Assembly: GCA_013239625.1 (NCBI GenBank)
Contig: MU053156.1
Coordinates: 62,467-126,466 of the forward strand
DNA length: 64,000 nucleotides
Source of the DNA: Lama guanicoe
Lineage: Eukaryota
Reading direction: 5' to 3'
The notes under the pieces were generated by a model. That model was not told where the DNA came from and did no database searches. It was given only the letters and a program-made list of their open reading frames with translations. Both the position numbers and the translations under genes were made by a program. Positions 1 through 64,000 of this stretch are shown here, piece after piece; positions within the stretch are counted from its first letter, which is position 1; the number at the start of each line of letters is the position of its first letter.

Positions 1-349
1 TTATTTTGAAGAAAAATTTTAAAGAACTTACTCAATTTCAGTAATTCAGTAATTCATTCAACGTTACTATCTTTTTTCGAGTTAGTTTTGTTTATATTTG
101 TCTAGATGTTTATTCATTTGATGTAAGTTTTCAAATTTATCAGCTTAAAGTTGTCTGTAACATCCTCGTGTTGGATTCATTCTCACGGCTCCTTTTAAAT
201 TCTTGATGTTATTGATTTGGATCTTTTTTCTTTATCAGTCTTGCTAGATATTTATTTTGTGTCTCTTCAAACACAAAATTCTGACTTTCATATGTTCTGT
301 TTCATTAAATTCTACTCTTACCTCCTGCAACTTTCATTTTTCTTTGTTT
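1..349. repeat. Copy 1 of near-identical direct repeat (matches 63652-64000)
   Basis: Direct comparison: identical except positions 32-33 (ctcaatttca vs ccaaatttca); offset 63,651. The sequence is a T-rich old L1-like remnant. Confidence 0.97.
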
Positions 350-849
350 TGTTGTAGTTCTTTTCTCACTTAAAATTGCAGCTCATTTGTTTTCAGCATT
401 TTTGTATTAGCATTCAACAATACCTTTCACTTTAAATACTATTTTTGTGAAATCTCCATGTTTTGATATGCAACACCTTATTAACATTCAGTTCTAAATA
501 TTCTGAAGATTCCATCAAGTGTTCTTCCTTGACACATGGGTTATCTAGGTGTGTATTTTAAAATATCCGAATATATCAGAATTTTACTTGTCTTTTCCCA
601 AAATTTTATTGTGGAAAACTTCAAACACACAGTAGAGCTGAAAGCACTTGCACCAAACAGCCATTTACCCATTTAGATTTCCCTTCAACGTTTGCTTGCA
701 TTCACTCTAGCGTGTCTGCCTTCTGCATCCACCTAGTCACCCATGAATTTATATTTTTTAATTCATTTCAAAGTACTTGCAGATTTCAGTACTTTACCTA
801 AATATTTCAGCATGCATTGACTCGAGTTCAATATTTGTTTATTTATTCT

Positions 850-1960
850 TTTGCTGCATAATTTACATATAATGAAACACACAAATCTTAAGTGTATATT
901 CATTGAGTTTTGATAAATGCACAGAGCTGTGTAACCCAAACAGCAATCAAGTTATAGAACATTACCATGACCTCCAGAAGTTTCCTTCCCAGTTCCCATC
1001 CTTTCCCCGATGTAACCAGAGTTCTAATTTTTTCCTACCGTAAGATAGTTTTGTATGTTCTGTACTTTCACATAAAATGGTATCATACCGCATATACTCT
1101 TGTGAAAGGCTTCCTTCACTTAGCATAGCGTTTCTGAGGTCCATCCATGCTGTCATGTGTATCTAAAGTCTGCTTCTTCAGATTGCCGAGTAATCTCGTT
1201 GAATGACTCTGCCACAGTTGGTTTTCCCAGTTTCTTACTGATGAGCACCTGGGCTATTTTTGCTCTTTGGGTGAATGAATAAAAGCCGTTTCAAAGTTCC
1301 TGCACTCGTCTTTTTGTGGGTATATATATTTTTTAACATATGCAAAAATCCTTAATGAGATACTGACAAATGAAATTTAAAAATACATTAAAACATTATC
1401 CCCCATGATCAAGTGGGACTTATGCCAGGGATGCAAAGCTGGTTCATTATCTTCATATCAAACAATTTGATGAGCCACACTAACAAAATAAAGAACAAAA
1501 ACCATACAATCTTATCAACAGATGCAGAGAAAGCTTCCGACAATGCCCAACACTCATAAAACCTTTCAACAAAGTATGTGTAGAGGGGACATACCTCAAA
1601 ATAAGAAGGCCAAATGTCACAAACCCACAATCACAATCAACATCTTTTTTTTCAATGGCACATACAGACTATATTGCATGTAATACATATATACAGTATA
1701 CTGCATGTGGGCATGAGATTTAATTTGTCTTAGCTGTGGACATGCTGGGTTATAGGGTTGATGTATATTTAGTTTCACAGGAAACTCCCAGACCTTATTC
1801 CTAAAGTGGTTCTACCAGATTTCATCCCCACCAACAATGGATGAGAGTTCCTGTTGCTGCACATCCTTTCCAACACTTGTTGTCAGCCTTGTCAGTGTTA
1901 GCTCTCCTAGGATGTGTAGTGGTATCTTACTGTGGTTTTAATTTGTGCTTCCCTGGAGGA
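850..1960. mobile_element. Old L1 fragments: minus-strand 3' pieces plus a plus-strand ORF2/RT fragment at ~1335-1640
   Basis: catgatcaagtgggacttatgccagggatgcaaagctggttc encodes the L1 ORF2 HDQVG.PGMQ.WF region; flanks resemble antisense L1M 3' ends. Boundaries approximate. Confidence 0.75.
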
Positions 1961-2129
1961 AAGTGAGCAATAGGATGGTTTCTCAGAGAGATGATGGTGG
2001 AAATCAAGCCTGGTTGTGATCATTGTTACAGCTTTGCTCTTTTTCTTTCTTTTTTTTTCTTTTTTTAGTCTCCATCAAATCCTTTCTCATATTTCCTTTT
2101 GGTTTCCCTTATTTATATTTTTCCTGTTT

Positions 2130-2272
2130 ATTTTTTTTAACTTTTTTTATTGAGTTATAATCATTTTACAATGTTGTGTCAAATTCCAATGTAGAGCACA
2201 ATTTTTCAGTTATAGATGAACATATATATACATATTCATTGTCACATTTTTTTCCCACTGTGAGCTACCATA
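2130..2272 (-). mobile_element. Short lineage-specific L1 3'-end insertion
   Basis: T-tract then attgagttataatcattttacaatgttgtgtcaaattcc, the reverse complement of the L1 3' ends at 29.5 kb and 36.3 kb; flanked by tgtttattt on both sides. Confidence 0.75.
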
Positions 2273-2722: not shown

Positions 2723-2875
2723 GAGGTGGGGGGTATAGCTCAGTGGCAGAGTGCATGCTTAGCATGCACAGGGTCCTGGGTTCAATCCCTAGCACTTCCA
2801 TCAAAAAAACAATAAACAAATAAATAAACCTAATTACCCCCCCAAAAAAACAAAAAAGAGCAAAAATTAAAAAAA
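2723..2875 (+). mobile_element. tRNA-derived SINE (camelid vic-1 type)
   Basis: A box tagctcagtgg, B box ggttcaatcc, A-rich tail, perfect 12-bp TSD aagatttattct (2711-2722 / 2876-2887). Confidence 0.9.
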
Positions 2876-3214
2876 AAGATTTATTCTCTTAGCAACTTTC
2901 AAATATGCAATTCAGTATTATTAACTATAGTTGCCATGCTCTACATTACATTCATGTCTTATTTATTTTATAACTAGAATTTTGTACCTTTTGATCCCTT
3001 TCACCCATTTTGTTCACTTGTCACCTCTGCCCCACCTCTGGCAACTACCATTCTGTTGTCTGTATCTAAGAATTCATTTTTTTAAAGATTGCACATGTGA
3101 GATCATAAGGTATTGGTCTTTCTGTCTTATTTTCCTTGGCATAATGCTCCCAAAATCCATCAATCTTGTCATAAATGGAAAGATTTTCTTCTTTTTTGTG
3201 GCAGAATAACATTC

Positions 3215-3266
<52 letters not shown>

Positions 3267-4035
3267 CATACCTTCTTTATCCATTCATCTATTGATGGAC
3301 GCAAGTTGTTTCCATATCTTGGCTGTTACAAATAATGCAGCTATGAACACTGGAGTGCATGTATCTTTTTGAAATAATATTTTCATCCTCTTCAGGTAAA
3401 TACCTAGCAGTGGCATTGCTGGGCCATATGGCAGTTCTATTTTGAATGATTTGAGGAGCCGCAATGGGTGGGTGCACCAATTGACATTTCTATCACCAGT
3501 GTATGAAGGCTCCTTTTTCTCCACATCCTTGCCAACACTTGTTTTCCCTTGTCTTTTTGATGATAGCCATTCTAACCGATGTGAGATGACAACGCGTTGT
3601 GGTTTTGATCTGCATTTCCCTAATGATTAGTGACCCATGGACCTGCTGGCCACTGTATGTCTCCTTTGGAAAAAGTGTCTATTTAGGTCCTCCACCTGTT
3701 GGATTGTTTATTTGTTCACTATTGAGTTGTAGGAGTTCTTTATGTTTTCAATATTAACACCTGAATAGATACATGATTTGCAAATAGTTTGTCTTTTTCC
3801 TCAGGTTGCCTTTTCCTTTTGTTGACTGTTTCTTTTGCTGTGCAGGAACTTTTTAGTTTGATGTAGTCTCACTTGTTTATTTTTGTTTTTGTTGCCTTTT
3901 GGTGTCAAATCCAAACACTAATATCGCTGTCAGTCTGTTTTCTTCTAGGAGCTCAATGGCTTCAGGTCATACATTCAAGCCTTTAATCCATTTTGAATTA
4001 ATTTTTGTGTGTGGTGTAAGGTAGTGTTTTATTCT
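2731..4035. repeat. ~1.3-kb sequence duplicated at 4784-6080 across the N gap
   Basis: Identical ORFs at offsets 2053 and 2027; copies differ in (GT)n length, a g/a SNP at 3301, and 13- and 5-bp indels. Confidence 0.95.
3217..3265. repeat. (GT)n microsatellite
   Basis: Uninterrupted gt run; the second copy (~5270-5292) is 26 bp shorter and interrupted. Confidence 0.95.
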
Positions 4036-4042
4036 ATTCTTT

Positions 4043-4783
4043 NNNNNNNNNNNNNNNNNNNNNNNNNNNNNNNNNNNNNNNNNNNNNNNNNNNNNNNNNN
4101 NNNNNNNNNNNNNNNNNNNNNNNNNNNNNNNNNNNNNNNNNNNNNNNNNNNNNNNNNNNNNNNNNNNNNNNNNNNNNNNNNNNNNNNNNNNNNNNNNNNN
4201 NNNNNNNNNNNNNNNNNNNNNNNNNNNNNNNNNNNNNNNNNNNNNNNNNNNNNNNNNNNNNNNNNNNNNNNNNNNNNNNNNNNNNNNNNNNNNNNNNNNN
4301 NNNNNNNNNNNNNNNNNNNNNNNNNNNNNNNNNNNNNNNNNNNNNNNNNNNNNNNNNNNNNNNNNNNNNNNNNNNNNNNNNNNNNNNNNNNNNNNNNNNN
4401 NNNNNNNNNNNNNNNNNNNNNNNNNNNNNNNNNNNNNNNNNNNNNNNNNNNNNNNNNNNNNNNNNNNNNNNNNNNNNNNNNNNNNNNNNNNNNNNNNNNN
4501 NNNNNNNNNNNNNNNNNNNNNNNNNNNNNNNNNNNNNNNNNNNNNNNNNNNNNNNNNNNNNNNNNNNNNNNNNNNNNNNNNNNNNNNNNNNNNNNNNNNN
4601 NNNNNNNNNNNNNNNNNNNNNNNNNNNNNNNNNNNNNNNNNNNNNNNNNNNNNNNNNNNNNNNNNNNNNNNNNNNNNNNNNNNNNNNNNNNNNNNNNNNN
4701 NNNNNNNNNNNNNNNNNNNNNNNNNNNNNNNNNNNNNNNNNNNNNNNNNNNNNNNNNNNNNNNNNNNNNNNNNNNNNNNNNNN
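4043..4783. other. Assembly gap (741 N)
   Basis: Run of n. Confidence 1.
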
Positions 4784-4928
4784 GGGTATAGCTCAGTGGC
4801 AGAGTGCATGCTTAGCATGCACAGGGTCCTGGGTTCAATCCCTAGCACTTCCATCAAAAAAACAATAAACAAATAAATAAACCTAATTACCCCCCCAAAA
4901 AAACAAAAAAGAGCAAAAATTAAAAAAA
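4784..4928 (+). mobile_element. Duplicate of the vic-1-type SINE (within the duplicated block)
   Basis: Identical to 2731-2875. Confidence 0.9.
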
Positions 4929-6642
4929 AAGATTTATTCTCTTAGCAACTTTCAAATATGCAATTCAGTATTATTAACTATAGTTGCCATGCTCTACATT
5001 ACATTCATGTCTTATTTATTTTATAACTAGAATTTTGTACCTTTTGATCCCTTTCACCCATTTTGTTCACTTGTCACCTCTGCCCCACCTCTGGCAACTA
5101 CCATTCTGTTGTCTGTATCTAAGAATTCATTTTTTTAAAGATTGCACATGTGAGATCATAAGGTATTGGTCTTTCTGTCTTATTTTCCTTGGCATAATGC
5201 TCCCAAAATCCATCAATCTTGTCATAAATGGAAAGATTTTCTTCTTTTTTGTGGCAGAATAACATTCCAGTGTGTGTGCGTGTGTGTGTGTGCCATACCT
5301 TCTTTATCCATTCATCTATTGATGGACACAAGTTGTTTCCATATCTTGGCTGTTACAAATAATGCAGCTATGAACACTGGAGTGCATGTATCTTTTTGAA
5401 ATAATATTTTCATCCTCTTCAGGTAAATACCTAGCAGTGGCATTGCTGGGCCATATGGCAGTTCTATTTTGAATGATTTGAGGAGCCGCAATGGGTGGGT
5501 GCACCAATTGACATTTCTATCACCAGTGTATGAAGGCTCCTTTTTCTCCACATCCTTGCCAACACTTGTTTTCCCTTGTCTTTTTGATGATAGCCATTCT
5601 AACCGATGTGAGATGACAACGCGTTGTGGTTTTGATCTGCATTTCCCTAATGATTAGTGACCCATGGACCTGCTGGCCACTGTATGTCTCCTTTGGAAAA
5701 AGTGTCTATTTAGGTCCTCCACCTGTTGGATTGTTTATTTGTTCACTATTGAGTTGTAGGAGTTCTTTATGTTTTCAATATTAACACCTGAATAGATACA
5801 TGATTTGCAAATAGTTTGTCTTTTTCCTCAGGTTGCCTTTTCCTTTTGTTGACTGTTTCTTTTGCTGTGCAGGAACTTTTTAGTTTGATGTAGTCTCACT
5901 TGTTTATTTTTGTTTTTGTTGCCTTTTGGTGTCAAATCCAAAAAAGCATCGCCAACACTAATATCAAGGAGCTGTCAGTCTGTTTTCTTCTAGGAGCTCA
6001 ATGGCTTCAGGTCATACATTCAAGCCTTTAATCCATTTTGAATTAATTTTTGTGTGTGGTGTAAGGTAGTGTTTTATTCTTTTGCATGTGGCTGTCCAGT
6101 TTCCCCAACACCATGGATAAAAGAGACTGTCTTTTCCTCATTGTATATTCTTGGATCTTTTGTCATAAATTAATTGACCATATACGTAGGAGTTCATTTC
6201 TAGGCTATCTAGATTCTGTTCCATTGATCTGTATGTCTGTTTTTATGACAATATCATACTGTTTCGCTGACTACAGCTTTGTAATATAGATTGAAGCCAG
6301 AAAGTGTGATGCCTCCAGCTTTGTTCTTCTTTCTCAAGATTGCTTTGGCTGTTCTGGGTCTTTTTTGGCCCATACATGTTTTAATATTGTCTGTCATATT
6401 TCTGTGAAAATAATATCTTAATAATAAACTGCTAAAACCTCTGAGATTGGTGTTTGGATGTGTTCCAGGTATTATATAATATAAATCAAGAACTGTGTAA
6501 AATTTAAGGTGAATAGGCCACAGAATGAAATGCTTTTGCCACAACTTTCCCAGAATTCAACTATCAGTAATAATAAAAAGAAAATCTAAAATTTGAGTGT
6601 GACAGTGTGTCAAAGACTGACCTAAGAACTTTAGGTTTTATA

Positions 6643-7245: not shown

Positions 7246-9339
7246 AGGAACTTCAGGTTTTATAAAGTGTAATTCTACCCCAAATTCTATATGATGTTTA
7301 TGACTCCCTCTGATTCTCAGGTCAAGAAACGGTGACACATGGAGCTTGGCAAAACATATGTGGTATTCCCTCTTATCTTTACATCTCCAAGAGTTAACAT
7401 TCTTTTAAAATGTCTGTAGAATATTTGAAAAGCCTGATCCTGCTCAACTAACCATGTTTAACTGAAAATGACTGTGAGAGGATACGTGCAAAATGCGTGG
7501 CGCAGCATCTGGCTCAGCGCAGACCCTGCGAGCCATGGGGCCGAAGGAAACCTCAGTGAGCCGACAAGGCAGATGCAGACCCCTCCAGCCCTGCCCTGTG
7601 TGGCTGCTGGTGCCAGGGCTCCAGGCCAGCGAGTGATGGGCTGAGGGGCTGAGCCCGAGAGTCAGGGCTCCCTCAGGGTTAGGCTGAGCTAACAGAAGAG
7701 AATTTCTGGGCCAACTCTGCCCTGTCTGAGGGGAAGCTGGTGAAGGAGGCACTGATGAAGGGACAAGTGAGGGGTTTCAGCTCAGGGAGGAGCGTAGGCC
7801 CCACCCCAGGCTCTGCCAGCAGCCTGGGTCCCGGTGCTGGGGGACAGCATCAGGTGGAGGTCACATCTTCCTCCTCTGCTTCCATCTTGACCCCATTTGT
7901 TACCTAGGCTCGGGAGACACCTGCTTCCAGCACGTGCTGTGCTCCAGGTCATGTCCTCGGCCTTCTTAAGTGACTCCTTGAAATGCCATTGGGTTTATAT
8001 CTTTCCAAGAGCCACCAACCTAACTGACGCACGCAGCTGGGAGCAGCTTAATTTTATCTATGTAGACGTATACATTTAAAAAGTTTAAGTACGGCCAGTT
8101 TACGACCTTGCGTTAAGATCTAGTGTACAGTACAGTGATTCAGTTGCATATATACATATATTCCTTTTTATATTTTTCCACTATAGGCTATCACATGTTG
8201 TAATATCCCACAGACAAGCTTCATGAAATGTACAAACTTAGAGTGTGTTTAAAACATTCTTTTTTCTTTTCCCTGAAATCAGCTCGCTCTGCTGAAATCA
8301 GTGACGACAAGGAGGTGAGGGCCCGTTCTCAGCACTGCTTGCTTTCTGGGGTGAGGACAGTGCTCCAGGCAGGTCCTGGGTGGCTCACCCGTCCTCACAG
8401 AGAAGGGATGTCTCCTCTCCTTGAGGAGCTGAGCTATTTCTTAGTCGCTGTTTGTGGCCCCTAACGTTCTCTGAGACCAGCTTCCTCCCCTCACAGGGGA
8501 GGTCGTGTGAGAAGTCAGCCCTGCCTGGAGCCTGGGCCCGCGGAGGGAGACGGGACCCTCGCTCCAGCCCCCGGAGCGCGTGCAGGTCCTCCTGGGTCCC
8601 GGGCAGCAGAGCGAGGCCCGAGGCACCTCCCAGGTGTTCTGTGCCCAGCGTCAGTCTGCAAAGACTGTGGAGAGCCCAGCTGGGGAGGGGGCGCTGATGG
8701 TGGCCCGTGGGCAGTTACTGGGCTGACATGCCGGCAAGAGGCCATCCTCCACCTCACTCAGGATCACCTGCAAGTAATAAAAGTCATAATCTACGACTAA
8801 CAGGAAGGATGGCAATAAAATAAGGCCACTTATGTGGTGCTTACATCGCTGTAGTCACTGCAAACCTGTCAGCCCGACAACAACCCTGTGCCCTGCGAAC
8901 AAGCCCACTTCACAGACGTGCCGACTGAGGCGGAGGGTGGTCAGGGGATGTGCCCAAGGGTCCCACGAGCGGCAGGAGTAAAGACAGGATGGCACAGGCT
9001 GCTTTGTGACTGGCTGCCCTACCGCAGGGAAGCGGCAGGTCTTGGTTCCTGCTGGCCCTTCCTCTCAGTGCCCCTCATCCCCCACCGCCTGGCCCTACTG
9101 AGGCTCAGGGATGGGGTCAGACCTGCAGCAAGGACTTTCCTCAGAAGCCCTGGCCTCAGCGGCAGGACGGTGTCACCTCGACAGCCGGGATGCCAACACC
9201 CATCCTATCAAGGCCGCGCCCACAGGGAAGGGCTGGTGATGGCGCGTCTCCTGCGTGAGGTGAGGGCGGCAGCCACCTTCTGGGATCTTCACCCCAACCC
9301 CATCGCCCTTGCCTGATCATAAGAAAAGCAGCAGACAGG

Positions 9340-11258: not shown

Positions 11259-12213
11259 ATGGCCACAAACAACCACACAGCCCCGGAGGAGTGTGCCCTG
11301 CAGTTTCTCAGCAGAGCCTGTGCTCTGGGGCCTCTTCCTGGCCTTGTTCCGCCTCCTCTACCTGGGGCTCTTGCTGGGACACCCTCGCTGTCACGGCCAC
11401 CAGCCTGCACCTAGGCCTCCATACGCCAGTGTACTTCTTTCCCACCACCCAGGCTATTGTAGACACGGTCCGCACATCTACTGTCCTCCCCAGGTTGCTG
11501 GAGACCCTGGTGGTCAAGGGTGGCACCACCTCCTGCGGGGGCTGCTCGACCCAGCGCTTCTTCCTGACCTGGCTTCTGGGGGCCGAGCTGCTGCTGCTCA
11601 CGGCCACGGCCTGTGACGGCTACAGCCTGTGACGGCCACGAGGCCCCTGCCGCCCGGGGCGCCGCGGTGCGCTGAGGAGCCGGCCTGGCTGCGGCCCACT
11701 GGGGGACGCAGTGTGGCCGGGCAGTGTGGCCGGCGCGTCTGCTCGCACAGGCCTGGTGACGAGGCTGACGCCCTGCAGCTCCGTCAGACCCAGCCCTTCC
11801 TCCATGAAGCCTCCTCCCCGCTGCTGCCCTCCTGCAGCCCTGCACCCCAAACGACATTTGGATCGATCACCGTGGTGGGGGGAGCAGGGGGTGGACTTCG
11901 GGGTGGTCAGCTTCCTGCTCGCCCTGGCGTCCTGCGGCTGCATCACCGCCTGCATCCTGAGCATCTGCTCAGCCATGGGCAGGACGCAGGCCTCCTCCAC
12001 CTGCTCCACCCACGTCCTGGCGGTCTCCGAGTGCCACTCGGCCGTCATCGGCATCTACACCTACACCCGCCCCACGTGCAGTGCCCGTGGGACAAGGACG
12101 AGCTGGTGTCGGTGACCTACACGTCTGTGGCACCACCCCTGAATCCCCTCATCTACTCGCTGAGAAACACAGAGGTCAAAGCTGCGCTCAGGAGGCGGCT
12201 CCCCTGCCGCTGA
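11259..12213 (+). pseudogene. Olfactory receptor pseudogene, family 13 (OR13A-like; from memory most similar to mouse Or13a19/Olfr525)
   Basis: Intronless ~955 bp. OR motifs are spread over three frames: MATNNHT (N-glycosylation site), FSAEPVLWGLFLALFRLLYLG (TM1), LHTPVYFF, TWLLGAELLLLTATACDGY (MAYDRY), ASSTCSTH (KAFSTCSSH), PPLNPLIYSLRNTEVKAALRR. Multiple frameshifts. Confidence 0.93.
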
Positions 12214-22260: not shown

Positions 22261-22279
22261 GAAGTTCTGTTTGAAGTAC

Positions 22280-35870: not shown

Positions 35871-36139
35871 CTCTTTCCTGGACTGAACTATTCTTCCAGG
35901 GAACTACAGTGTTCATGCTCTTCATTGGGAAGGAAAAAAAAACCCTTCCGGATAAAGATTTTTCTCTTCTAACGCTTGTTTTAGATGCTTTGTTTATTTT
36001 TATGGTTGGCCCTCACACGTGCAAGGGATATTAACACAGCCTCAGAATTAAAATGTAAAATTATCTTCCTCTTATGTTGACCCAGATTTTGGTCAGAGCC
36101 CAAGGACTCAAACAGTAAAGTTTCAACTTAAAACAGAAG

Positions 36140-50370: not shown

Positions 50371-53300
50371 AGTAGAAAACAAGGGACAGCCTCCTGTTGC
50401 TTGCTGTTTGGTCAATTTTTTAAAACTCAGTATGGTATAAAGAGAGGGATGAGCATTTTAAAGGACCTTGTAACATGAATTAATGAAGTCCAAACTGCAA
50501 GATGTGGGACCCCGAGAGTTAGCAGCTGCTGCAGTCTCAAACTCTCCCCCTAAGCCCAGCCCCTCCAGCCTGCCTTAAAGGCAATTCTCAGAGTCTGCAC
50601 TGGACCCCACCACCAGCAACCCCCCAGCACCCGGGCAGGAGGCTCTGGGAGGACCTGGGCTTGGAGACACAAACCCATCAGTGCCAGCACTAAATGCAAA
50701 GCACAGCGAAAAAGTTTGAAATTTGTGTAGAAGATTCTGACTGGCTGAAAAAGAAACTTTCTTTTCTGGGTTAGGATGTGCCATCAACTTTTTTATTTCT
50801 CAACCACAGCTTTATGTCTTACAACAGACTATGTAATTCTTAAATAGGGGGGACAATCATGTTTCAGCTTCAAAGTCTCAAAATTATTTTATGGGACATA
50901 TGTAACAAAAAGAAAAGGATCTGCTAACTCCAAGAACTGCTCAGAGATCGTTTAATCTTCCTTTAATAACAATAAAAAGAGTAACTTACTTTAAAAATAG
51001 GTTTGTGCATGAGCCACCTCTATCAGTTTTCCAAAGGCAGAAAAATAGGCAGTCACTTAAAATTAAATGATTTATGAATAAACTCTGGGGAAAAAAAAAA
51101 GTATCTTAGACCTGTGTCTGTGGTAAGTGCTATAACAAAGAGAAATAAAAGGAAACTCACTAGAAGGAACCTAAAGCCAAGGCCTAACCAAGCCTTCTTA
51201 GTCCTCCCTCCAAGCCAGGCATCCACTGACCACGAGCTGCCTGGGGACCTGGTGTTTTGTTCACTGAAGCAGCTGAACAGCTAGTCTGTGTACTAGTACA
51301 CACAGACAACACTTGCTGAATTAATTAGTAACTGGGAAGCCCAGGTGGAGTTAAGTTTGCAGCTCTGTCCAGAATGATCTTATATCAGTGTTTTCACACA
51401 GTGACACAGTAATCTATTTCCTTATCAGTCTGTCTCCAACAGGCTCTGCAGCATCCCTCAGGGAGGGCGGGAACATGGACCAGGGCCTGGCAGAGAAGAT
51501 TCTCTGACTGTTAAATCTCACCAGGAGAGGGGGCTGCCCTAACCCACACAACTGTGGGACCCAAGTCTAGCAGTCTCACTTTCACGGACTCTGCTTTGCA
51601 CTCCAGGACGATGTCCAAGAGACTGAGGTGACGGAGGACCCTGGCTCTGCCAGGCCCACTCACTTCCAGGCAGTAATGACCAGAGCACTAGCCCGAGGCT
51701 AAGGGCTCAGCGCTCACCTACATGTTTCACCCAATCCCCCCAGCCCTGAGGTGGGTATCACTACCCTCTCTCTATAGGACAGAAAAACAAGCTCAGGTCA
51801 CAGACAGGTGTCCAGAGCACAGACTCTTACTTACTCTACTGTACAGACTCCAGCCACGGATCAGAACATGGGCCTCAGATAATCTGCTCTGAAGTCACTC
51901 AGTGGGTGGTGGGTTCCTGGGTGTTTACTGTTAGGCTGCATGGCTCACACATTATATATGTATCCAATATTCAATAGATTGTAAAGAATGCCACCCCTAC
52001 ACCGCCAGAGACAGGAAGGCAGAAGAGCCCTAAAAGCGACCCAAAGCCCCTCTCCTGCCTAAACGACTTTGCCCTCCCCTCCTTTCCTCCCCACCAGCAC
52101 CCAACAGCAGGCCTCCGCCCAGCACAAGAAGAGCAGGGGAAGCAGCACGGAGAACTACCCTAGTCAGTCAGAGGTCAGCGGGAGACAGCTCCTAACCACC
52201 CCCACTTCACTGCGCCACCCTAGAGAGGTCCAGCCTTATCACATGACTCCATCTGGGCCTCAGGTGCCGGGACCAGTGGTGCACACTGGCCCAAGCTGGA
52301 TCAGATTCTCTCCCCAAGGGGTCAGGGTGCTCTGGGCAGCTAGGGGCAGTGCTCTTCTGCCAAGTGCACAGGGATGTGGTAAAAGTGAAGAGAGGAAAAA
52401 AACAAAAAAACAGCTGTGCAGAGATGCAGGATGCAAGAAGATTTTGTAAATGTAAAGAGGGAGGGGAGTAGCTGCCTTGGTCTAGTTTTTAGTTCCTGGT
52501 TACATCCATACCTGAAGCTTTAACTGCTCTTCCTGTCCCTGCAACACCATGCGAAATATCCCTGGATCTTAATCACAGACTCCCCGATTTCTACAGCCCA
52601 TTTTCTACAAGTCGTGCCCGAAATGCTTTAGCACCCTTCCCCACCTTTCACCCAGCTAGCTCCACGTCATTCTCCATGTCCCAGCTTAAACAGCACTTCC
52701 TCCAGGAAACCCTACCCTCCCAGACTACTCTTCAAATCTTTGCTCTACTTTCGATGGGTACAGAAGGGAGCACTCTGCACCTCGTCATCTACTGAGTAAA
52801 CGGGATTACTTTCCTGTTAGGCTGTAAACACCAAAGTGTAAAAACCACTTCAATCCTACCGCTTAGCACGTAAGTCAGGTACACGCTCAGTAACGTTACC
52901 AAGTGAATGAAGATCAAGAAACTGGTGGAGAATGTAGGAGTGAGAAGGATAAACACTGATGAACACCCTTCTGATAAAAATGAAGCTGCTTTGACCCTAC
53001 CTCCGTCACCCCTTCCAAGTTTCTGGTTCCTCTCTCTTCTATCTCCACAACAGGCCCAAGTTGGTCACGACAATCATCATTTTATACTTTGGTGCTAACA
53101 CATTCAGGAACCCGAACTGCAGGAAGTACGTTTCCAGGTAACTCGCTCTAATAGAGGAAAGTCTAAAGTAGTTCAGGAAAAAAAAAATTTACACGTTTTG
53201 AGGTCTAGACAAATCTCAGTTCTGCTGCACATTTACTGGCTGTGAACCCTAGACAAGGCACCTGCAACCTGGTTTCCTTATCTGTAAGGTAAAAAATAAT

Positions 53301-53719
53301 AATAATAATAATACCTCAAAGATGAGGATGAAATGACCCTGAAACCACAGCACCTAAGGCAAGCTTGCAACTGTTAGATGGTCTGCACCCCACCCCCAGC
53401 TCCTACCAGCCACGGACGGGTTCAGAGCCCAGAGCCTGCCCTAAGACTGCGCATCTAAGAGGGACCTTGGAGAACATCTATCCTGTTGGCTTTCAAAGGT
53501 ATGGGAGCCCCAAGAAGTGAAAGAGAAAAGAGAAACAAACAGGAAGAAAAAGCCTCTCAGGGTCAGGCGGGTGGGCGGGCACAGCAGGCTGGACGCGGGG
53601 TGGGGTACCTTGACATGTTTCTCGGGGAATCGGTTGTGCTCTACTTAGTAGGTACATTACTGCGAGCAAAGTCAGGAATAAACTATATATAGTTCCCGGA
53701 AAATTCAACTTGCCTGTTT

Positions 53720-54116
53720 TCCACAAAAATCTTTTTATTAATGCTTGAGAACTGAGAACATACAAATTAAATTCAGCAGAATGGCATATCAATTATAGTC
53801 AATTATAGCCACCACCAGGAGCACATTATTAGGGATGTTACTAACATCAAAATGAATTTTGTTTGCATTTTACTTGCACTCAAAACTGTTTAGAAACTCT
53901 GGGTTTCCTGTTGCTCATGTAAGATGGTCTCCTCAAATCTTTGAGCTCCAAAAACCACACGAGACTTCTTTATTAAAAGTTACATTAACACTTAAACCAG
54001 CACAACTAGGAATCTAGTTTGGAGCGTCTGTACATGATTTGTACTACTGCTGGTCCTGCCTTTCAAACAGGTGCTACCAATACCCAGCAAAGTTCCAGAG
54101 AGGGATGGGCGGAGTG
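53720..54116 (-). other. Candidate terminal exon/3' end of the transcript from the 58-kb CpG island
   Basis: Minus-strand acceptor ttatttctcttggctctag|; AATAAA at 53969-53974 followed by GU-rich gtgtggttttt; second AATAAA at 53734-53739. Confidence 0.45.
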
Positions 54117-57089
54117 CTAGAGCCAAGAGAAATAAGGACAAGTTCATGGAGGAGATGAATCTCAGAATTCAGGACCTGCCTAGGGCCCAGTCTTTCTTGG
54201 GGACTGGCTGCTGGGAAACACTACTGGCATCTTAACAGGACGCTCCTCTGGTGCAGGGACTGACTGCTGCATGCACACTGCACGCGGGTCGTTTGGCACA
54301 TCCACCTCCACCACAGACACCCCGAAGGCCAGTAACACCTCCAATCAATGTAACAACAAAAAGCGAAACAAAACCCACATACATTTCAAAATGGCCCTGG
54401 AGATGGGGAAGAAAAATCACACCCACTGAGTACCCTTAAATAAGCAGAAAGAAGAGAGAACAAGCACAGTGGGGAGGAAGTCAAAGACAGATGAGGGAAA
54501 CACAAAATTTAAAGAGGAACCAGCAGAAAAAAAGGCATCCTTCAATGACCTTCACCTACCAGGTCAAGTCCCAGCTCCTTAGAAAACAAAGTCCTTCAGG
54601 ACTCGGCCCCACCCATCCCAGCTGCCTCCCCTCCAGTCTTCTCCCCAAGGTGCCTCCCACACCCTCTCTTCCCAGACAACTCCTGCTTTTCCTGACCACA
54701 TGTGCGGCACTCAGACCTCTGTGCCCTGGCATGTGAACTCTTGTCTACCTGGAATGCACGTCTCAAGGCAAACTCCCAGTCATACATCCACACCCAACGC
54801 CAAGGTTTGTGAAGCCAGACACACCAGCCCGGCCTTCTGCCCCCACAGCACTCCCCATGGGCATTCCATACTTCCGCCCAACTGCACCCCACTGTCTGGA
54901 CCAGCAGCTACTGAAGGGCAGGCGCCCCTTGAGTCCTCGCAGAGAACTGCTGTTCAATGAATTCTAAGTGAATGACCTTGCATGAAACGTTCCGTAAAAG
55001 GCTAAAAAAGCAAATCACAAAGAAAGCAGACAATAGATATTTTCTATTATTGAAAGCATGTATTTTCTAAACTCTGACCTTTGGTTTAGTATCACTTAGG
55101 AACCAGAAAGAGATGCTCTACCACTTCCTAGTTGGGTATCTGTGGGTAAATGAATTAACCTCGCTGTGTCTCAAATTTCCATTTTACTGGAAGGAACCAC
55201 CCCTTGCAGGGTGGATAAGAGGACTAATTAATATCTGCCTAAAAGAAAAAGTAGCAGAAAGTGTTGACTAAACGGCAGTTCTCACTAGCCTGCCGCAATT
55301 ACAGAGACCTTAACAGGACAGGACACTACCATCAGGAACGTGAGCACAACGAAATTTTGGTTAAAACTATGTTTTTTGGAGAGCTGGAAGTCAACAAATC
55401 CAACAGCTTGTCCTCCAGCTGTGCTGTGCTCTCTACAATCCTCAGTACCGATTCCTAGTTAGCACTATGTCCCCAGGCTCCTCTGACAATGTGGACTCTC
55501 AGGTCTCTGGTCTCTGACGACACCTCTTCCTCCTCCTCTGTAGCTAGCCCACTCTGGACACCTCAAGTCAGGCATTCCTTCAGCTCAGCTCACACATTTC
55601 TTTCTCATCTTGTCCCTTCTCAAGGCTTCAATTAAGATCTCTACGGAGATGACCTGACTTCTCAGTCACATTCAGAAAATGTTTCAAGCTGAATTTATCC
55701 AACATATCTACCTTAATTATATCATGAACCATACAACTTCAGCTTCTCTCTTTCATATCATTTTTTTTTCCTTTTCTCCTGAGTCTTATACAACTCACCA
55801 ATCCTCAGCTTCCTCTTCTTTGCCCACCCCTTAAAACTACTTCCTTGTCAAGTTTTCTTCTTTGCTCTTTCTCTTCTGTCTCACTGGTTCTTAAACTCTC
55901 TGGGACAATGAATGCTTTGAAAATGTACTGCATACTATGGATTATTTACTAAAACGATAAACACAAAGAATATATGCATGCAATTTCACCTAACCAATGA
56001 TCTCAAATAAGAACCTGTGTTCATTCACATCAGACTACCACTTGAACTAATTTTCATCTCCAGATGCTAAATCCCTTTATTTTCAGGACGCCTTCCAGAG
56101 ATAGTCTAAAGGGCCTCATAAACCAGCATCATGAACTTAACGAGTCCAAACCAGAACTCAGTATTTCTCCTTAACAAACCTCTTCTGCCTACACTATTCC
56201 TTCCACCATCCCCCCAGGCTGCAAGCCTTGGAATTAACAACCTTCCCCATATCACATCACCACGTCCTGTCTCAGAATCTCTCCTAAATCCCAATCCCAC
56301 CTCTTCAGCCTCTTACCCTGTAAGACCTCATCATCCTTTGCTTCATCCCATACCTGCCATGATGAAAAGTCCACCACTCGTCTGACAAGAGCCCCTTACT
56401 GACTCTACCATCTTCATCTCTCACGCCACTACGTAACTCCACCTCTAGAAGGTCACACAATCTGATTCTTCACCTCAGTTTTCTCCTCTTATTTCCACCA
56501 TTTTATCTAGATTCTCCAAATACCTGAAAAACTTATCGGGCGCCTGCCCCTTTTCAATTACTCTGATGGTTCTGCATTGCAGAAATATAAAATTGAACTC
56601 TCTTCTGCCTACAGAGTCCTCCACATTTCCCACCTACTCCCTTTTCCAGGATTGGATTCCACAGCTTCAATTGTGACTTGTACCTAATGGCTTTCTATCA
56701 AAACCACACCCACTGGGAAAGGCTCACTTCAAACTCTACTCTTTATATCCTATACGTAATGATTAGGAAAAGACATTGTATAAAAAAGGCCAAACTCATA
56801 AAGAACAGATTCAGAAAATAAATCACACACTCTTCATTAAAACATTTACGTCTTTCGAGAACATTAAGCTTTAAAAAGGAACGGCTCCACAAGTACCCAT
56901 CAGCACAAAATAGCCGGTTCTAATAAAAAACAACGCTGTCTCACCCCATTCGACGAACGCTTCTGAGGGATCTGGAGCCAGACAAGGGAGCCTGCATGCG
57001 CTCCTGCAAGAACTCCTTCGGGGCCACTGAGCACTAAAGCAGCAACTGGAAGAGTCCAGTCACTGTGCTAAAACGTCTGGATGCCTTTA

Positions 57090-58120
57090 TGCTAGTACCG
57101 GAGCTCACGCGCGGTAAAAGGGGAAAAAAGTCCAATTAGGCCCAACTCCAAATGACCCCTGAAGAAATCAAGACAGGAATGCCGACTTATCCTTCCTGAA
57201 ACGCGAACNNNNNNNNNNNNNNNNNNNNNNNNNNNNNNNNNNNNNNNNNNNNNNNNNNNNNNNNNNNNNNNNNNNNNNNNNNNNNNNNNNNNNNNNNNNN
57301 NNNNNNNNNNNNNNNNNNNNNNNNNNNNNNNNNNNNNNNNNNNNNNNNNNNNNNNNNNNNNNNNNNNNNNNNNNNNNNNNNNNNNNNNNNNNNNNNNNNN
57401 NNNNNNNNNNNNNNNNNNNNNNNNNNNNNNNNNNNNNNNNNNNNNNNNNNNNNNNNNNNNNNNNNNNNNNNNNNNNNNNNNNNNNNNNNNNNNNNNNNNN
57501 NNNNNNNNNNNNNNNNNNNNNNNNNNNNNNNNNNNNNNNNNNNNNNNNNNNNNNNNNNNNNNNNNNNNNNNNNNNNNNNNNNNNNNNNNNNNNNNNNNNN
57601 NNNNNNNNNNNNNNNNNNNNNNNNNNNNNNNNNNNNNNNNNNNNNNNNNNNNNNNNNNNNNNNNNNNNNNNNNNNNNNNNNNNNNNNNNNNNNNNNNNNN
57701 NNNNNNNNNNNNNNNNNNNNNNNNNNNNNNNNNNNNNNNNNNNNNNNNNNNNNNNNNNNNNNNNNNNNNNNNNNNNNNNNNNNNNNNNNNNNNNNNNNNN
57801 NNNNNNNNNNNNNNNNCGCCCGCGAACCATCTCGGGGCCGCACCGCTGCCGCCGCCGCATTCGGCACGAAGCTCCGCGGCAGCCGCTCGGTCAGCGCCGC
57901 GCTTCCCGGAGGGACTTCGCTGCCGCCGCTGCAGCCGCTTCAGCTGCCTGGAGGGAGAAGGGCCGGCGCCGCTCGGGAGAACCGCAGACACGTCTGCCCC
58001 TCGGAAAGGCTGCCGCGTAACTGCCTGGCAATCTGACCTTCGGGAGGGCGGAGAGAGGGCGCCGGGGCGTGGCCTGGAAGCGTGTGCGCGGATTGGCTGT
58101 CGTCTCTGGGGGCGGGTCTG
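57090..58120 (-). promoter_or_regulatory. CpG-island promoter (core lost in the gap), gene unidentified
   Basis: CpG-rich on both gap flanks; Sp/KLF boxes ggggcgtggc (~58064-58073) and ggggcggg (~58109-58116); CCAAT box (attgg 58092-58096); strong-Kozak minus ATG (gagATGg) at 57830-57828. Confidence 0.8.
57209..57816. other. Assembly gap (608 N) inside the CpG island
   Basis: Run of n. Confidence 1.
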
Positions 58121-58391
58121 GTGGCCCCTTGGATTTGTACTCTTTTTGCCTATCAGGATTTTTTTTTTTGAAGGGGGGGTAGTGATTTGTTTTATTTTTA
58201 CAGTGATCAGCTATCAAATTGTTTTACTTTGATATTATAGCCCCAAACTGGAGTACAATTGTCCTAGACAGACAGTGGTCTAAGAACTGAAGATCTTGAG
58301 TCCAACCACCTGAAAAAATGAAGTATAAAACTCTGGCTCCAAATGCTTATTCTGGTACTTGTTGACAATGTCGGTGATTTTCTGTTTCCGG

Positions 58392-61300
58392 CGGACATGT
58401 GTCATCCCTGAAGGACCCATGAGTCCAGCCAGGCACCCATGCCGGGCTCACAGTGGACCCTGCCTATGACAGTGGCCCTCATCATCCTGGGGTCCCTGCT
58501 GGGCCTTGTCTACAGTGTACTGGTGGCTAATATGATGCTTTAGAAGCTGCAGGGCAGGGGTGAGTGTCCTGGGAATTCAAAAGGCTCTGGCTCTGCGGAA
58601 GGTGCTTGCGACCCAGGGAGAAAATAGGATGTGATACATGTCTGCCACTCACAGTGGGGGCGGGGGGGGCATGGAGCTACTTCGGTCCTCCCAGGAGTTC
58701 ATGTGCTCACAGACCTGGCTCCACCACCAGTATCTGGACCACATAACTCTCTGTGGGTGTCCTGGCACTGCGGGATGTTGAGCAAGACCCCTGGTCCCCA
58801 CCCACCAGATGCCAGTGCAGTACCCTCCCACCCATGGTCATGACCCACAATGTCCCTGGGGGCAAACCTGCCTGGGCTGGGAACCCCTAGGCCAGAGGCA
58901 GGCTTGATGGGGTGCTGGGCATGTCTCTAAACCACTACCAGCCTGTAGGATCTGACAAAACAGGTTTTCTTACATATGAATTTGTTTGTGTAAAAAGCCT
59001 TAAAATGTGAAGATGTTAATTAACTCCTTAGTAATTACACAAATAATGAATCATCTTCATCGAAAAGAATATTACATAGAAAAAATGTAAATTTTAGCCA
59101 AGTTGTAAGATGGAGAAGGTTTTGCCAAGCTGGAGCTTGAATGGATATTTCGACTCTCTGTGGCAAGTCTTCCGGTGTTTCACTTACACTCAGTGTTCAC
59201 TAACGGTTTACCGCTCTCCTAAAAACGGTCACTTTTGAGACTCTGAGCAGCAGCACTGGAGCTGGGGGGGGGGGGTTCAGGAAGTCTTGTCTTATTTGGA
59301 ATATTTTCCTTCTTGTGATAGAAATTCTCGCTTACGTTTTCACCTGTTATGTTTGTCTTTGTTCACGTGATGAGTTAGCATTTAAGTATAATTGAAGGAA
59401 CAGTATTTCTTACAGAGGTTGAACCACAGAACAGAGTGGAGCACTGCCTGACCCGTGGCCCGGGGGGCCCGGGGTGGTGGAGGCAATTTGAAGCCCCTGT
59501 TTGCAGCTGGAGATGTGAACTCAGACACAGTCACTCGGGAGCCTCCCTGTCTCAGGTGCTCACGGGGTGGGGACATGTGGCTGTGGTGTCGGGGTCTGTG
59601 TCTCAGCCCTCATTTGGTAGCACTAGCAGAATTACAGCACCCCGGGTTCAACCAGAGGCGGATTCAACTAAGGGTGTGGGGTTAAACCCTGACCCAGCCA
59701 CGTCGGAGCCTCAGGACCTGCAGCTTCCTCACCCTGGAGTGGCTGCAGGGACTTCAGCGCATGGTGCCATCACAGAGAAGTCCGACAGTGTTTGAGTGTG
59801 CAGGTGATCAACAGTCAGGTATCATTACTGTGCCCTTTAACCACAGCTACCAGTGTTGGTGATGCAAGTGTTCCCCATCCTCTGCAATTATCCAACAACC
59901 CCAGAAAGAGGTTCTCTGAGTGTGAGTGTTGGAACTTAGCGCAGACGCTGTAGTGAACACCTGCAGGGTTTTATCGACAAGTAGGCAAATGCTCAGAAAG
60001 GAAGTTGTGGTTTCTTAATTGCTGACCTCACATACTGTTCAACAGTTTAATAAAGATATAACCATCAATACTGGGAACCCTTTTACACTTATGGACAGAA
60101 GGATGGAGTTTAGCCAAATTCCAGTTGCAAATCTTTTGAGCCCTTGAGCAGGAAGTTTTATCTGCTGCCTCTGGGTTTAGGCTGTGCTCCCAAAGGGAAG
60201 CAGTAGGTGCCGGGTTGATTGCTCAAGGCCCTGCCACAGTCCTGACCTGGATTCCATCTCCCTGAGCCCAGCCTCCATCCTGTCCCACCTTGTGTGGGCT
60301 CCCAGCTGCCTTCACAGACTCAAAGGTGGAGAGAGATGACGGCTCCAGGACATGGCTTGGACTCCGCCTCCCAGTTTCTGTCCATTTGGAAGCAGAAGTG
60401 GTGCCCTAAAGGGGCAGGGACAGATATAAGAGGTGCCAGGGACAGTGAGGACACTCTGAGTCCCTGGTGCCCAGGGAAGGGCATCCACAGCTCCAGGGCT
60501 GGCAAGGGCATTGAGCATGAAATGGGATTTGAGGACCCTGTCACCTGCCAACGCCCACTTTAGTCACAAAGTGGCCCTGGCAGGCCAGCCTCCCTCCCCC
60601 ATTGTGTCTGGAGGCTGGTTTCCTTCTCCAGGACCTCCCAGGGAGGGACCTCTCTCAGTGTGCTCCTTTGCAGGGTCCCAGGGACATGGGTAAGTCTCCA
60701 AGGTCATCTATGAGCAGATCCTTGAAGACTGCATGGACTTGAATGGTACAAACCTGAAGCCTGGGGACTCTAACAAGTGAGTGTGGGGCTCCTGCACCCT
60801 GCCCTCACTCTGACATCAGGACAGGGAGGCAGCCCTGGAGCTGAGAGTTCAGGGGCGGAGATGTGATGGCATGGGTCTCAGCCCTCCTGTGGCATTTAGT
60901 GCAGGCCCCTTCGGGCACCAGGTGTGCAGAGGGAGGAGCCTGGAGCTCCTAGGATGGCAGGAGGCCTGTGAGGGGTGGTCAGAGAGGCAATGGGGCCAGA
61001 TTCCAAGGCTCCCAGACCCACTAATATGTGCATCCCTTCCATCACCCTATGGGGTGGGCTGGCTCCACCCTCTCTTGCTGTCCTGGGTTCCCTGAGACCC
61101 CCTTTGCCCCGAGGAGACCCAGGCAGGCCACCCAGCCTCCAAGACCAAGGGGGGGGCTGAAAGAAGGTACCTACAAATCAGTAAATTTTGTCCCCATCCC
61201 TGGGATCCCCACACTCTGCTCTGGTGGTTAAGGGGAGGGGAGCCTGACACCTTGAGCCCACCCCAGGAGTTAAGCACCTGAGCCAGGTCTCCCCGGGACC

Positions 61301-61903
61301 AGTCAGAGGCCCCAGCACAGAGCTGGTCGCATCCACCCAGCACTGCCCACTGGCAGGTTATGTGCTGGGGCGGGGCCAGGAGGACGAGTGGGCAGCACCA
61401 CAGGCTAGGCAGCCCCTGGGTGGGGCCGTCCTTAGCTCTCCTCCCCAGGGACACGGCCTGAACTCCTGCGAGGGTGCATCTTTCTGGCAAAGCAATAGCC
61501 TCACTGGACCAGGGTGTCCTGGGCAGCCCCCTGAGACACCCTGACAGACTGGGGTTGGAGACACCCCTGGGACCTGACAATCAGGTGACCCGTGCTCCTT
61601 CTGGCCTGCAGGTGACCCACCCGACCCGCTGCAGGGAGGCAGCCCCTCAGCGGTGAGAGAGGAGGCCCCCCTCCCGGGCGTCCTCGTGCTCCAGCTACAA
61701 CGACATGGCTGCGGTGGGCACTGGGGTGGCTGCGGTGGGCACTGGGCCGTGAGCCAACCGCTCCTCCATCTGCTCCTGTCCCTTGTGGTGCTTCCAGGGA
61801 GGACCTAGGTTTTCCTGGACAGATTCATCCTCGGAACCTTCGTTAACAAGCCCTCCCCGCCCCCATTGCAATGATGTTAATAAAGGTCGCCCAATTCAAT
61901 AAA
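58392..61903 (+). pseudogene. Orphan 3' fragment of an SRCR group-B receptor (SCART/CD163/WC1 family, possibly SCART2-like): TM exon 58392-58559, cytoplasmic exon 60674-60776, terminal exon from 61612
   Basis: TM exon encodes QWTLPMTVALIILGSLLGLVYSVLVANMML*KLQGR and ends at a phase-1 G|GTGAGT donor. The next exon (ctttgcag|) continues in phase 1 as GSQGHG*VSKVIYEQILED (cf. WC1/SCART EAVYEEL/YEDI motif). The last exon ends SYNDMAAVGTG...P* (cf. YDDV motif), with AATAAA at 61879 and 61898. In-frame stops at 58409, 58541 and 60691; TM acceptor degraded (ttccgg). Confidence 0.62.
58710..58890. mobile_element. MER20-like DNA transposon
   Basis: gtcctggcactgcgggatgttgagca...ccaccagatgccagt...aatgtccctgggggcaaa. 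Confidence 0.75.
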
Positions 61904-62590
61904 GTTAGAACCTCTGTCCAGCCTCGCGCTAGTGGGAACAGGGTCAGTAAACCACCAGAACCCTGGACGATGCCGGTTCCCACCCAGTGGTGCCCAGAGG
62001 TTCCAGAACCCCGGACATGCAGCGGGAGACCCTGCCCTGGGTGCCTACTGCTTTCCCATCAGCCTGGAACTCTGGGAACTCGGCCTCCCCAGCCCTTCCT
62101 GCCACTGGTGCCACGGGGCCCCACTGGGTCCAAGCCCGGTGCCCGCGCCGCGCTCCATTCCGACCCTGCACTAGAGCTTTGCGCTCCCCACACACGTGAC
62201 CCGGGGTGAGGGCTCCGCTGTCCCCACTGCCATCATGTTATTCCGATTTCAGGTGACATTTTTGTTCTTACGAACAAGATATTCTTTGCAGAGAACGTGT
62301 TAAAGAGAGAGGTCTCCAGAAGAAAAAAAACGCTCACTGTGCACAGTTGGTAACAACTGATTCCTTCCTAAAAACGTACTTGGAGACCCTGAAGGGTACG
62401 TCTCCCTGCGGGCCGGGTGCCACGCTGCGGGCCGGGTGCCAGCCTGAGACCACTGACTGGAAGGCAGCGAACTAGCAGAAAGGGGGAGGGTGTGTGAAAC
62501 GGGTGGGGCCCAACCTGGGAAAGGATGGACACTTTTCATGGGGTACACACGAAGGGGTCCAGACCTCCAAGCCATGAGAGTATTTGCAGA

Positions 62591-62618
62591 TACACGCACA
62601 CACACACACACACACACA
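62591..62618. repeat. (CA)n microsatellite; a (TG)n tract also lies at ~62915-62936
   Basis: Direct. Confidence 0.9.
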
Positions 62619-63651
62619 AATCTGCATGCAGACTGCACACGTGGGGCTCTGCCTCCACCTCCTCCCTGGGCCAGGTCCATGTGCCCACCCGCCCCAGGCC
62701 TTGGAGCCACGGTGGTCATGGTCAGCCACCAAGAATTCCCAGCGAGGGCAGCCGGTGGCCGAGGACAGACCCTCAGCTGTATTTTTGCTGGCAATAAAGC
62801 TGACATTTTGGGTTCCATTTGCTTTAGACCTGTTTCTGTATCTCAGTTCCTTTTTCTGTCTGGCAGGGAGGAGAATGCTCTTATTGGAACCCTGCGGCCT
62901 GATGCCTGCTCCTGGTGTGTGTGTGCGTGTGTGTGTCCTTCGTTCCTGAATGCAGCCTCCCCTTTCTACAGAGAACACAGCCCGGCGTGGGTACTTAGCC
63001 TGGGGAGAGCTTCCCCTACAGCTGTCAGAGGTCAGAGCTCACCTAGCAGTGGAGCAGCATTTCCCTTGAATCACACTTACTGTTCCTTCTTCATCTAACC
63101 CATTTTCTCCTCAGCGTCCTGAGACTAATGGCTTTTTACAGGCACAGATTCTTCCAATGAGCCACGGTTTCCTAATTGTTTAGCAGCCCCACTCCTGTGG
63201 CAACCTGGCAGTGCGGGTCCTCAGACATCTCCTTGGGGTCCTCCCCAACTTCTCGAAGAATCCTTACTTCTCAGCACTTACTGATGTCTCCTGGCTTCAT
63301 TTCCACAGCCCTGGGATCTCTGTTGGCATCTCTCCAGAGCCCTAGTTCCTTTAAATGGATGCAGGCATGAGGTTAAGTCGTGCCAAACTGACCTCACTCC
63401 TGGTTTTTACACTCTTTAGCTACTATTAGTCTTTTAATACATCACGTGATTTGGGATTCTCTTGTGCATGAAGCATTTGTGTATGTATGTTCATGCTGGA
63501 AATTATCCTGTCATGTTTTTTCTTCTTCCTTGTCTTTGATTTCAAAATAATGGCCTCATAGAATGAGATGCGGAAGATTTTGCCTCTTTTTCTATGGAAG
63601 AAATTATATATGGTTGGAATGATTTCACCTGTAAAACGTGGGACTATTTAA

Positions 63652-64000
63652 TTATTTTGAAGAAAAATTTTAAAGAACTTACCAAATTTCAGTAATTCAG
63701 TAATTCATTCAACGTTACTATCTTTTTTCGAGTTAGTTTTGTTTATATTTGTCTAGATGTTTATTCATTTGATGTAAGTTTTCAAATTTATCAGCTTAAA
63801 GTTGTCTGTAACATCCTCGTGTTGGATTCATTCTCACGGCTCCTTTTAAATTCTTGATGTTATTGATTTGGATCTTTTTTCTTTATCAGTCTTGCTAGAT
63901 ATTTATTTTGTGTCTCTTCAAACACAAAATTCTGACTTTCATATGTTCTGTTTCATTAAATTCTACTCTTACCTCCTGCAACTTTCATTTTTCTTTGTTT
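63652..64000. repeat. Copy 2 of near-identical direct repeat (matches 1-349; runs off the window end)
   Basis: 347/349 identity to 1-349. Confidence 0.97.

Follow-up and report, generated by a model that had tools for sequence, protein, structure and literature searches.

Which event could place the same DNA twice, 63,651 bp apart, in a single guanaco contig? The question is raised by a stretch of 64,000 nucleotides from Lama guanicoe (assembly GCA_013239625.1, contig MU053156.1, positions 62,467 to 126,466; the whole stretch is called the window throughout). Its first and last 349 nucleotides are nearly identical, and its interior combines pieces of unrelated loci, among them an OR13-type olfactory receptor (OR) pseudogene, the 3' exons of a membrane protein pseudogene, and a CpG island resembling the 5' end of MAPK1. 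An original prediction, made from the letters of the window, had proposed a composite unit that is tandemly amplified or arose via a circular intermediate. The reading favoured here, with a confidence somewhat better than even, is that an old mosaic of duplicated fragments (duplicons) underwent a real, recent, low-copy direct duplication, probably in tandem and with a period of 63,651 bp.

Within the window, positions 1-349 and 63652-64000 agree at 347 of 349 sites, exactly as had been claimed from the letters, and BLAST assigns the pair E ~1e-180. The two mismatches stand side by side (positions 32-33) and probably represent one event. In a 25-mer dot-plot of the window, the offset of 63,651 collects 299 shared words; the only stronger offsets, of ~2.0 kb, come from a pair of sequences flanking the first of two assembly gaps, and the next one, of ~6.76 kb, from two young repeat ends (28 and 24 words). 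The terminal pair is the sole long, distant, near-identical pair in the window. It lies in an old remnant, presumably of L1 type. At E<=0.01, the 349 bp have no further match in the window. The identity thus cannot stem from independent copies of an old repeat, and chance or independent old-repeat insertions were rejected as its source; the original prediction was right on this point. The match is cut at both sides by the window edges, so that 349 bp is its minimum length, and any direct repeat with a spacing of 63,651 bp would give such ends within 64 kb of sequence. A small scaffold closed upon itself was likewise rejected, as the contig continues beyond the window. The two young repeat 3' ends of the dot-plot (29389-29627 and 36149-36386, 94% identical) are ordinary interspersed repeats.

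The join from 64000 to 350 was also read through. The pieces flanking it were added to alignments against two old repeat copies of the window (13381-14400 and 42501-43250), with 300 shuffles as controls. Against 13381-14400, the addition of 63381-63651 beats 300/300 shuffles and that of 350-620 beats 293/300 (7/300 reach the score), and the read-through is colinear with this copy over ~790 bases. One old repeat thus appears to read through the join, which is moderately supported by one of the two reference copies. The original prediction had read across the same join from SCART-like 3' exons towards the OR gene; the continuity stands at this strength, while the SCART label is not confirmed.

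A second line of evidence comes from the CpG island that spans the second gap (island 1). When an open reading frame (ORF) of this island was compared with 2349 candidates, a single protein matched, alpaca XP_072807794.1, encoded on a 26,839,285-bp contig of an assembly that is presumably the long-read VicPac4. Residues 29-70 of this protein (42 residues) are identical to window 57943-57818 and begin directly after a splice acceptor. Residues 1-27 and 115-140 can be encoded by one DNA in two frames with 0/26 conflicts, the next best placement giving 12 conflicts and 200 shuffles giving 10-15. A colinear gene model that contains the exon twice requires that the alpaca assembly carry it in two near-identical copies on the same strand, in agreement with the same-strand second copy that had been postulated. 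As the second occurrence adjoins the part that is identical to the window, it probably fills gap 2. For the first occurrence no other readable copy exists in the window, which places the second island-exon copy outside it, as predicted by a direct repeat at 63,651 that extends at least 6.2 kb before position 1.

In its content, island 1 looks like a decayed MAPK1 5' end, on the strength of a weak match: the best of five PDB matches to the first 28 residues of XP_072807794.1 is MAPK1 (7e75; E=0.11, 15/27 columns identical). The window flank ends in MVRG, the same residues as the MAPK1-like exon. CpG enrichment is found on both flanks of gap 2 (observed/expected, o/e, 0.68-1.11), and the skews below the island fit a minus-strand gene starting there (G-C -0.09 to -0.54); the remainder of the MAPK1-like exon 1 probably lies in the gap. 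As a side observation, the alpaca 'uncharacterized protein' reads as a chimera of pseudo-exons, with the MAPK1-like exon twice in two frames, followed by a part from outside the window. This C-terminal part may resemble CTDP1/FCP1, a resemblance for which the searches gave no confirmation.

Features of the 64,000-nucleotide window, ordered by position
Feature	Positions	Strand	Basis and remarks
Direct repeat, copy 1	1..349	+	Cut by window start; sits in old antisense remnant, presumably of L1 type
Gap 1 with the same 1.3 kb on either side	2731..6083	+	2731-4042 versus 4784-6083
Upstream piece, first exon of both dromedary OR models	8580..8705	+	tblastn of KAB1255325.1 and KAB1271530.1
OR13A/13G-type olfactory receptor pseudogene	11259..12213	+	Pfam and protein comparison; frameshifts, stop
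Candidate junction A, end of antisense L1-type remnant after the OR block	14380..14400		Putative; T-A skew
OTUB1 processed pseudogene	22263..23307	+	Poly(A), 13-bp target-site duplication; one nonsense codon, one frameshift
CpG island 2, promoter-like	34401..35900	-	GC 0.69, CpG o/e 0.87; candidate first exons, donors near 35575 and 34796
Candidate junction C, from the AT-rich sequence upstream of island 2 to the GC-richer sequence below island 1	50400..51200		Composition only
Putative start of intron 1 of MAPK1-like duplicate	51150..57208	-	Suggested by skews
CpG island 1 across gap 2, putative decayed MAPK1-like promoter and exon 1	56801..58150	-	CpG enrichment, weak PDB match
Candidate junction B, MAPK1-like promoter / GC-rich 3'-exon block	58150..58410		Putative; GC 0.35 -> 0.56
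3' exons of type I membrane protein pseudogene	58412..61903	+	Translations
Direct repeat, copy 2	63652..64000	+	Cut by window end; offset 63,651; 347/349 versus 1-349

Several observations weigh against a recent duplication of the whole unit. One event in 349 bp is a divergence as low as that between alleles, and gap 1 shows that the same assembly contains a false duplication. The true length of the repeat may fall well below 63.65 kb, and the two island copies of the alpaca model need not be 63.65 kb apart. The repeat copy 42501-43250 gives the read-through no support, as 210/300 and 300/300 shuffles reach the score in the two cases. Regarding the MAPK1 label, for which E=0.11 is a weak value, the window's own 24-residue MAPK1-like piece alone gave 0 matches, and the whole of XP_072807794.1 gave no kinase match. 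The right-hand block (57817-64000) is present at 0.81-0.88 of its 664 words in 19 of 24 listed runs with five organism labels from seven studies (three runs at 0.03-0.04 and two unindexed raw-read runs being excluded), and such word shares bear on the presence of the block, not on its junction or copy number; the derived block itself is real and widespread.

The first two of these points are shared with an assembly artefact, a reading that is plausible but unlikely. Here the 349-bp copies would be haplotypes or overlapping contig ends of a misordered single-copy region, and the old mosaic would be real while the recent repeat would not. The window contains two N gaps, 4043-4783 (gap 1) and 57209-57816 (gap 2). 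The pair flanking gap 1, which the original prediction had missed, differs by two substitutions, the length of a GT microsatellite, and small indels near the contig end; here the assembly has falsely doubled one sequence, out of two haplotypes or contig ends, which inflates it by ~2 kb. False duplications are reportedly known from draft assemblies as near-identical copies at allele-level divergence. The gap-1 pair is such a case and abuts its gap, whereas neither 349-bp copy abuts a gap in the window, the nearest ones being 3.7 kb and 5.8 kb away. Furthermore, the alpaca model, which lies on a contig of chromosome scale, requires the island exon in two colinear copies. The position of gap 2 between the middle and the right-hand block fits a misordering; yet both gap-2 flanks are CpG-rich, the skews fit one minus-strand gene, and the gap most likely lies inside one CpG island, not at a mis-join.

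The possibility of a shorter repeat leads to a partial direct duplication, in which a block from island 1 through the L1-type remnant (at least 6.5 kb, perhaps ~20 kb up to junction A) flanks a single middle. All direct evidence concerns the island and the L1 end, and nothing shows the middle twice, as this scenario would have it. On the other hand, it needs a second event, a deletion or an insertion, besides the duplication, and it is considered distinctly unlikely.

The direct duplication favoured here would have copied a mosaic that is itself old, and the age of the mosaic is read from the OR block. In Pfam, the pseudogene gives two seven-transmembrane matches, both below cut-off (7tm_1 E=7.7e-6, 7tm_4 E=0.0016). 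A search of 1.84 billion representatives gave 401 proteins at E<=0.001; ten matches were looked up, seven of their clusters are named, and 5/7 of these are OR13A1(-like) or OR13G1. Among them are two dromedary OR models, KAB1255325.1 (contig of 24,923,383 bp) and KAB1271530.1 (contig of 85,443,229 bp). With the former, the window agrees at 44/45 and 100/105 residues and has the broken reading frame in common; with the latter, it agrees at 38/43 and 19/37 residues. The upstream piece agrees at 20/21 and 19/21 residues with KAB1255325.1 and KAB1271530.1, respectively, and lies 2.8 kb from the OR body, both being common to the two models. Because this upstream exon is retained with the OR body, the OR was copied as DNA together with its intron and not by retroposition.

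From these matches, the KAB1255325.1 locus appears to be the derived copy, on a small chromosome, and the KAB1271530.1 locus the parent-like copy, on a large one. Since the window matches KAB1255325.1 more closely than KAB1271530.1, it is the counterpart of the derived dromedary copy, and the idea that it represents the native OR13 locus was rejected, the window being closer to the derived copy on the 24.9-Mb contig. The derived copy also being present in the dromedary, the OR block of the window predates the split of camels and llamas. Camels and South American camelids separated 11-25 Myr ago according to PMC13751797, which is the minimum age of the move of the OR block. In Table 3 of PMC6598621, alpaca chromosome 11 corresponds to human 1q/10q (77 Mb) and chromosome 32 to 12q/22q (22.7 Mb); the donor of the OR block is probably chromosome 11 (human 10q) and its host chromosome 32 (the human 22q homologue), these numbers following from the homologies; size alone would not single out chromosome 32.

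Some side observations concern the OR locus. The dromedary proteins KAB1255325.1 and KAB1271530.1 seem to be gene models assembled out of pseudogene frames, with one upstream exon in common. Just 5' of the OR start codon, a 14-bp tandem repeat occupies 11161-11240 with 5.8 copies. The OR frame of the window is ~91% identical to dromedary-type ORFs derived from sequencing runs. Eight such run-derived variants of the pseudogene frame (10922-11629) are 96.6-99.6% alike, with differences of up to 3.4%, and at two nearby sites every one of the four combinations occurs among them; they may be paralogues, alleles, or chimeric contigs.

Collapsed paralogues among these eight variants, up to 3.4% apart, would be expected of a high-copy, copy-number-variable array that was collapsed in the assembly, a reading that overlaps with the favoured one. 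An array of this kind would have a camelid precedent, as PMC13751797 describes multi-megabase alpaca blocks with 10-19 pseudogene copies. However, this paper names chromosomes 11, 17, and 36, not 32, and the eight variants resemble the dromedary type and are explained equally well by alleles, species differences, or chimeric contigs. A collapsed array is quite improbable.

The original prediction had also drawn on a circular intermediate, by analogy with the KIT alleles of cattle. In this scheme, a circle made up of [3' exons + OR][other loci] would have opened at another place or gone back in through homology. A closed loop can be drawn from the window, and the derived OR copy lies on a different chromosome from its donor, which is also seen in circle-mediated duplications (PMC7450558). 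Such duplications are recognised there by a flip of order from A-B/C-D to B-A/D-C and by a non-tandem position, and in the cattle KIT case the copy finally returned to the donor locus (repatriation; PMC3420103). The resemblance to the cattle KIT and human cases is confined to the interchromosomal copy and the drawable donor-other-donor order (PMC3420103 and PMC7450558). Any direct repeat of this period draws the same loop, whereas a permuted single insertion has no terminal repeat; circular permutation was rejected as the cause of the 349-bp repeat, since A-B/C-D to B-A/D-C leaves a single copy without it (PMC7450558). Repatriation occurs at the donor locus in the KIT case (PMC3420103), but the window is the derived locus, matching the copy on the 24.9-Mb and not that on the 85.4-Mb contig. 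No order flip is visible within the window either: in the visible block the 3' exons, L1 and OR appear to read through colinearly. Unlike the KIT and circle type, the window has no shown order flip, intact gene, or phenotype and is not at the donor locus, and a terminal direct repeat is not a signature of those systems. A circle re-inserted at its own locus would be indistinguishable from a tandem duplication. Overall, the circular intermediate is not supported and is very improbable.

The other components of the mosaic are less firmly identified. In the 3' block, a hydrophobic exon carries a stop near 58540; short exons come after it (near 60690-60777 and 61612-61652), and AATAAA signals stand at 61879 and 61898. 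SCART/WC1-like is a tentative and unconfirmed name for it: in the test of these exons, 0/24 candidates scored, Pfam gave no match, and the Atlas returned only unnamed short hydrophobic clusters, while no SRCR exon was found in the window. In carnivores, SCART1 and CYP2E are found together (PMC9597770).

The middle carries a well-preserved promoter-like island and a young retrocopy. The OTUB1 processed pseudogene, which serves as a marker for dating the middle segment and had not been noticed before, is recognised by Pfam (Peptidase_C65, E=1.7e-66) and is 96% identical to mammalian OTUB1 over 88% of its ORF; among the best 120 of 197 matches, no camelid OTUB1 retrocopy record that places the middle in another assembly was found. 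Both CpG islands of the original prediction are present with the enrichment given above and in the table, the MAPK1-like nature of the one at 57-58 kb being an addition. Island 2 shows a GC box, a TATA-like stretch, and strong minus-strand donors, and home-made exon scans and a splice scan found no coding exon within 21 kb downstream of it and no convincing coding exon in the middle. Pfam gave no match above cut-off for island 2. The Pfam scan covered 260 stop-to-stop ORFs, namely 233 of the 329 minus-strand ORFs of at least 35 aa between 14.0 and 58.3 kb and a minority (27) of the plus-strand ORFs, with repeat regions dropped by eye; it returned OTUB1 as its only hit above cut-off, plus the OR pieces below it. 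An exact look-up of window ORFs in a protein collection matched 0/10. Among the repeats, tRNA-derived SINE copies, which we assume to be camelid SINEs, lie at 2725-2810, 4784-4862, and 47895-47978 and are ~80% alike.

Composition suggests where the pieces meet. At ~14.4 kb the T-A skew drops from +0.25..0.47 to negative (junction A), and the best GC change point lies at 51150 (0.37 -> 0.47; near junction C). Circle-mediated duplications of the KIT type are marked by junctions with 1-2 bp of microhomology or short indels; junctions A and B have only an 18-base match in common, which is at chance level. The view of the window as a composite of unrelated loci stands, and in a camelid, with the modification that the GC step near 51.1 kb probably divides the middle into two donor loci rather than one 'other locus'.

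Duplicon mosaics, or mosaic segmental duplications, were reportedly described by Bailey and Eichler in 2006 (cited in PMC13751797) from the pericentromeric and subtelomeric regions of mammals. In the same manner, intron-bearing pieces of unlinked genes were joined in the window, decayed, and would then have been re-duplicated as a unit. The joining of unlinked loci is seen in the OR13 block beside the MAPK1-like 5' end (the latter label being weak), and copying at the DNA level in the upstream exon with the OR body and in island 1, which keeps promoter DNA. Same-strand, near-identical copies, as in tandem duplications, are given by the terminal pair and by the island exon in XP_072807794.1. 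Measured against the usual bound of at least 1 kb at >=90% nucleotide identity, 349 bp are visible at 99.4%, and the other copies were compared as protein only. The differences from known duplicon mosaics are the camelid host, an apparently low copy number, and no sign here of an expanding gene family. The window thus works like a mosaic segmental duplication and has the features tested for one; it is a known kind of structure and not evidence of a circle.

The alpaca blocks on chromosomes 11, 17, and 36, with their NEK10-, ATF5-, FMN2-, and ABHD17A-like pseudogene copies, show a camelid duplication landscape that is similarly full of gene fragments (PMC13751797). They are 4-10 Mb in size, dispersed, satellite-rich, and absent from camels (same paper), unlike the present unit of ~64 kb, in which no satellite array was found within the window and whose OR block is common to the dromedary. 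A survey of copy-number variants (CNVs) in camelid species exists (bioRxiv 10.1101/2025.08.28.672513), and its supplements or those of PMC13751797 may list the region; no description of the locus was found in the titles, abstract openings, and passages searched. The passages searched in PMC6618069, PMC6476961, PMC7288448, and PMC6371769 had no bearing on the locus, with 0 matches in the supplements of PMC6371769, and the literature searched contained no description of the OR13 block or the MAPK1 5' end as duplicon donors.

Taken together, two steps may have shaped the locus. In the older one, duplicative transpositions at the DNA level would have built a pseudogene mosaic on a small camelid chromosome homologous to human 22q (probably chromosome 32), its parts being (i) the 3' exons, L1, and OR13 pseudogene, copied from a large chromosome (probably chromosome 11, human 10q), (ii) the 5' end of a CpG-island gene, which became the target of OTUB1 retroposition, and (iii) the MAPK1 5' end; at least the OR block would have been in place before camels and llamas split. 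In the recent one, this mosaic would have been directly duplicated, which placed a further copy of the DNA at a distance of 63,651 bp, in the simplest form head-to-tail in two or few copies, by unequal exchange or template switching. The duplication breakpoint itself would then be one of the junctions A (~14390), B (58150-58410), or C (~51 kb), the others being old seams. We infer in this scheme the chromosome numbers, the MAPK1 label, the junction positions, the repetition of the whole 63.65 kb, the copy number, and the repair mechanism. A bolder extension, which we regard as unlikely, holds that the unit is a South American camelid duplicon that carries a promoter and varies in copy number, and that splicing across its tandem copies yields a new transcript. 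This transcript would start at the MAPK1-derived exon of one copy, pass through the following copy and reach a CTDP1-like exon (as in XP_072807794.1; the CTDP1 label is tentative), and would amount to gene birth from duplicated promoters, seen while still under way.

No working gene or phenotype is shown at this locus, and its importance is of another kind. At least two database proteins, XP_072807794.1 and KAB1255325.1, are read from pseudogene pieces, which is a warning for annotation, and around MAPK1, OTUB1, and the OR13 locus there is a risk that short reads or CNV calls are mis-mapped. If the reading favoured here is right, the window dates two duplicon-building steps in camelids, a transposition before the camel/llama split and a very recent re-duplication.

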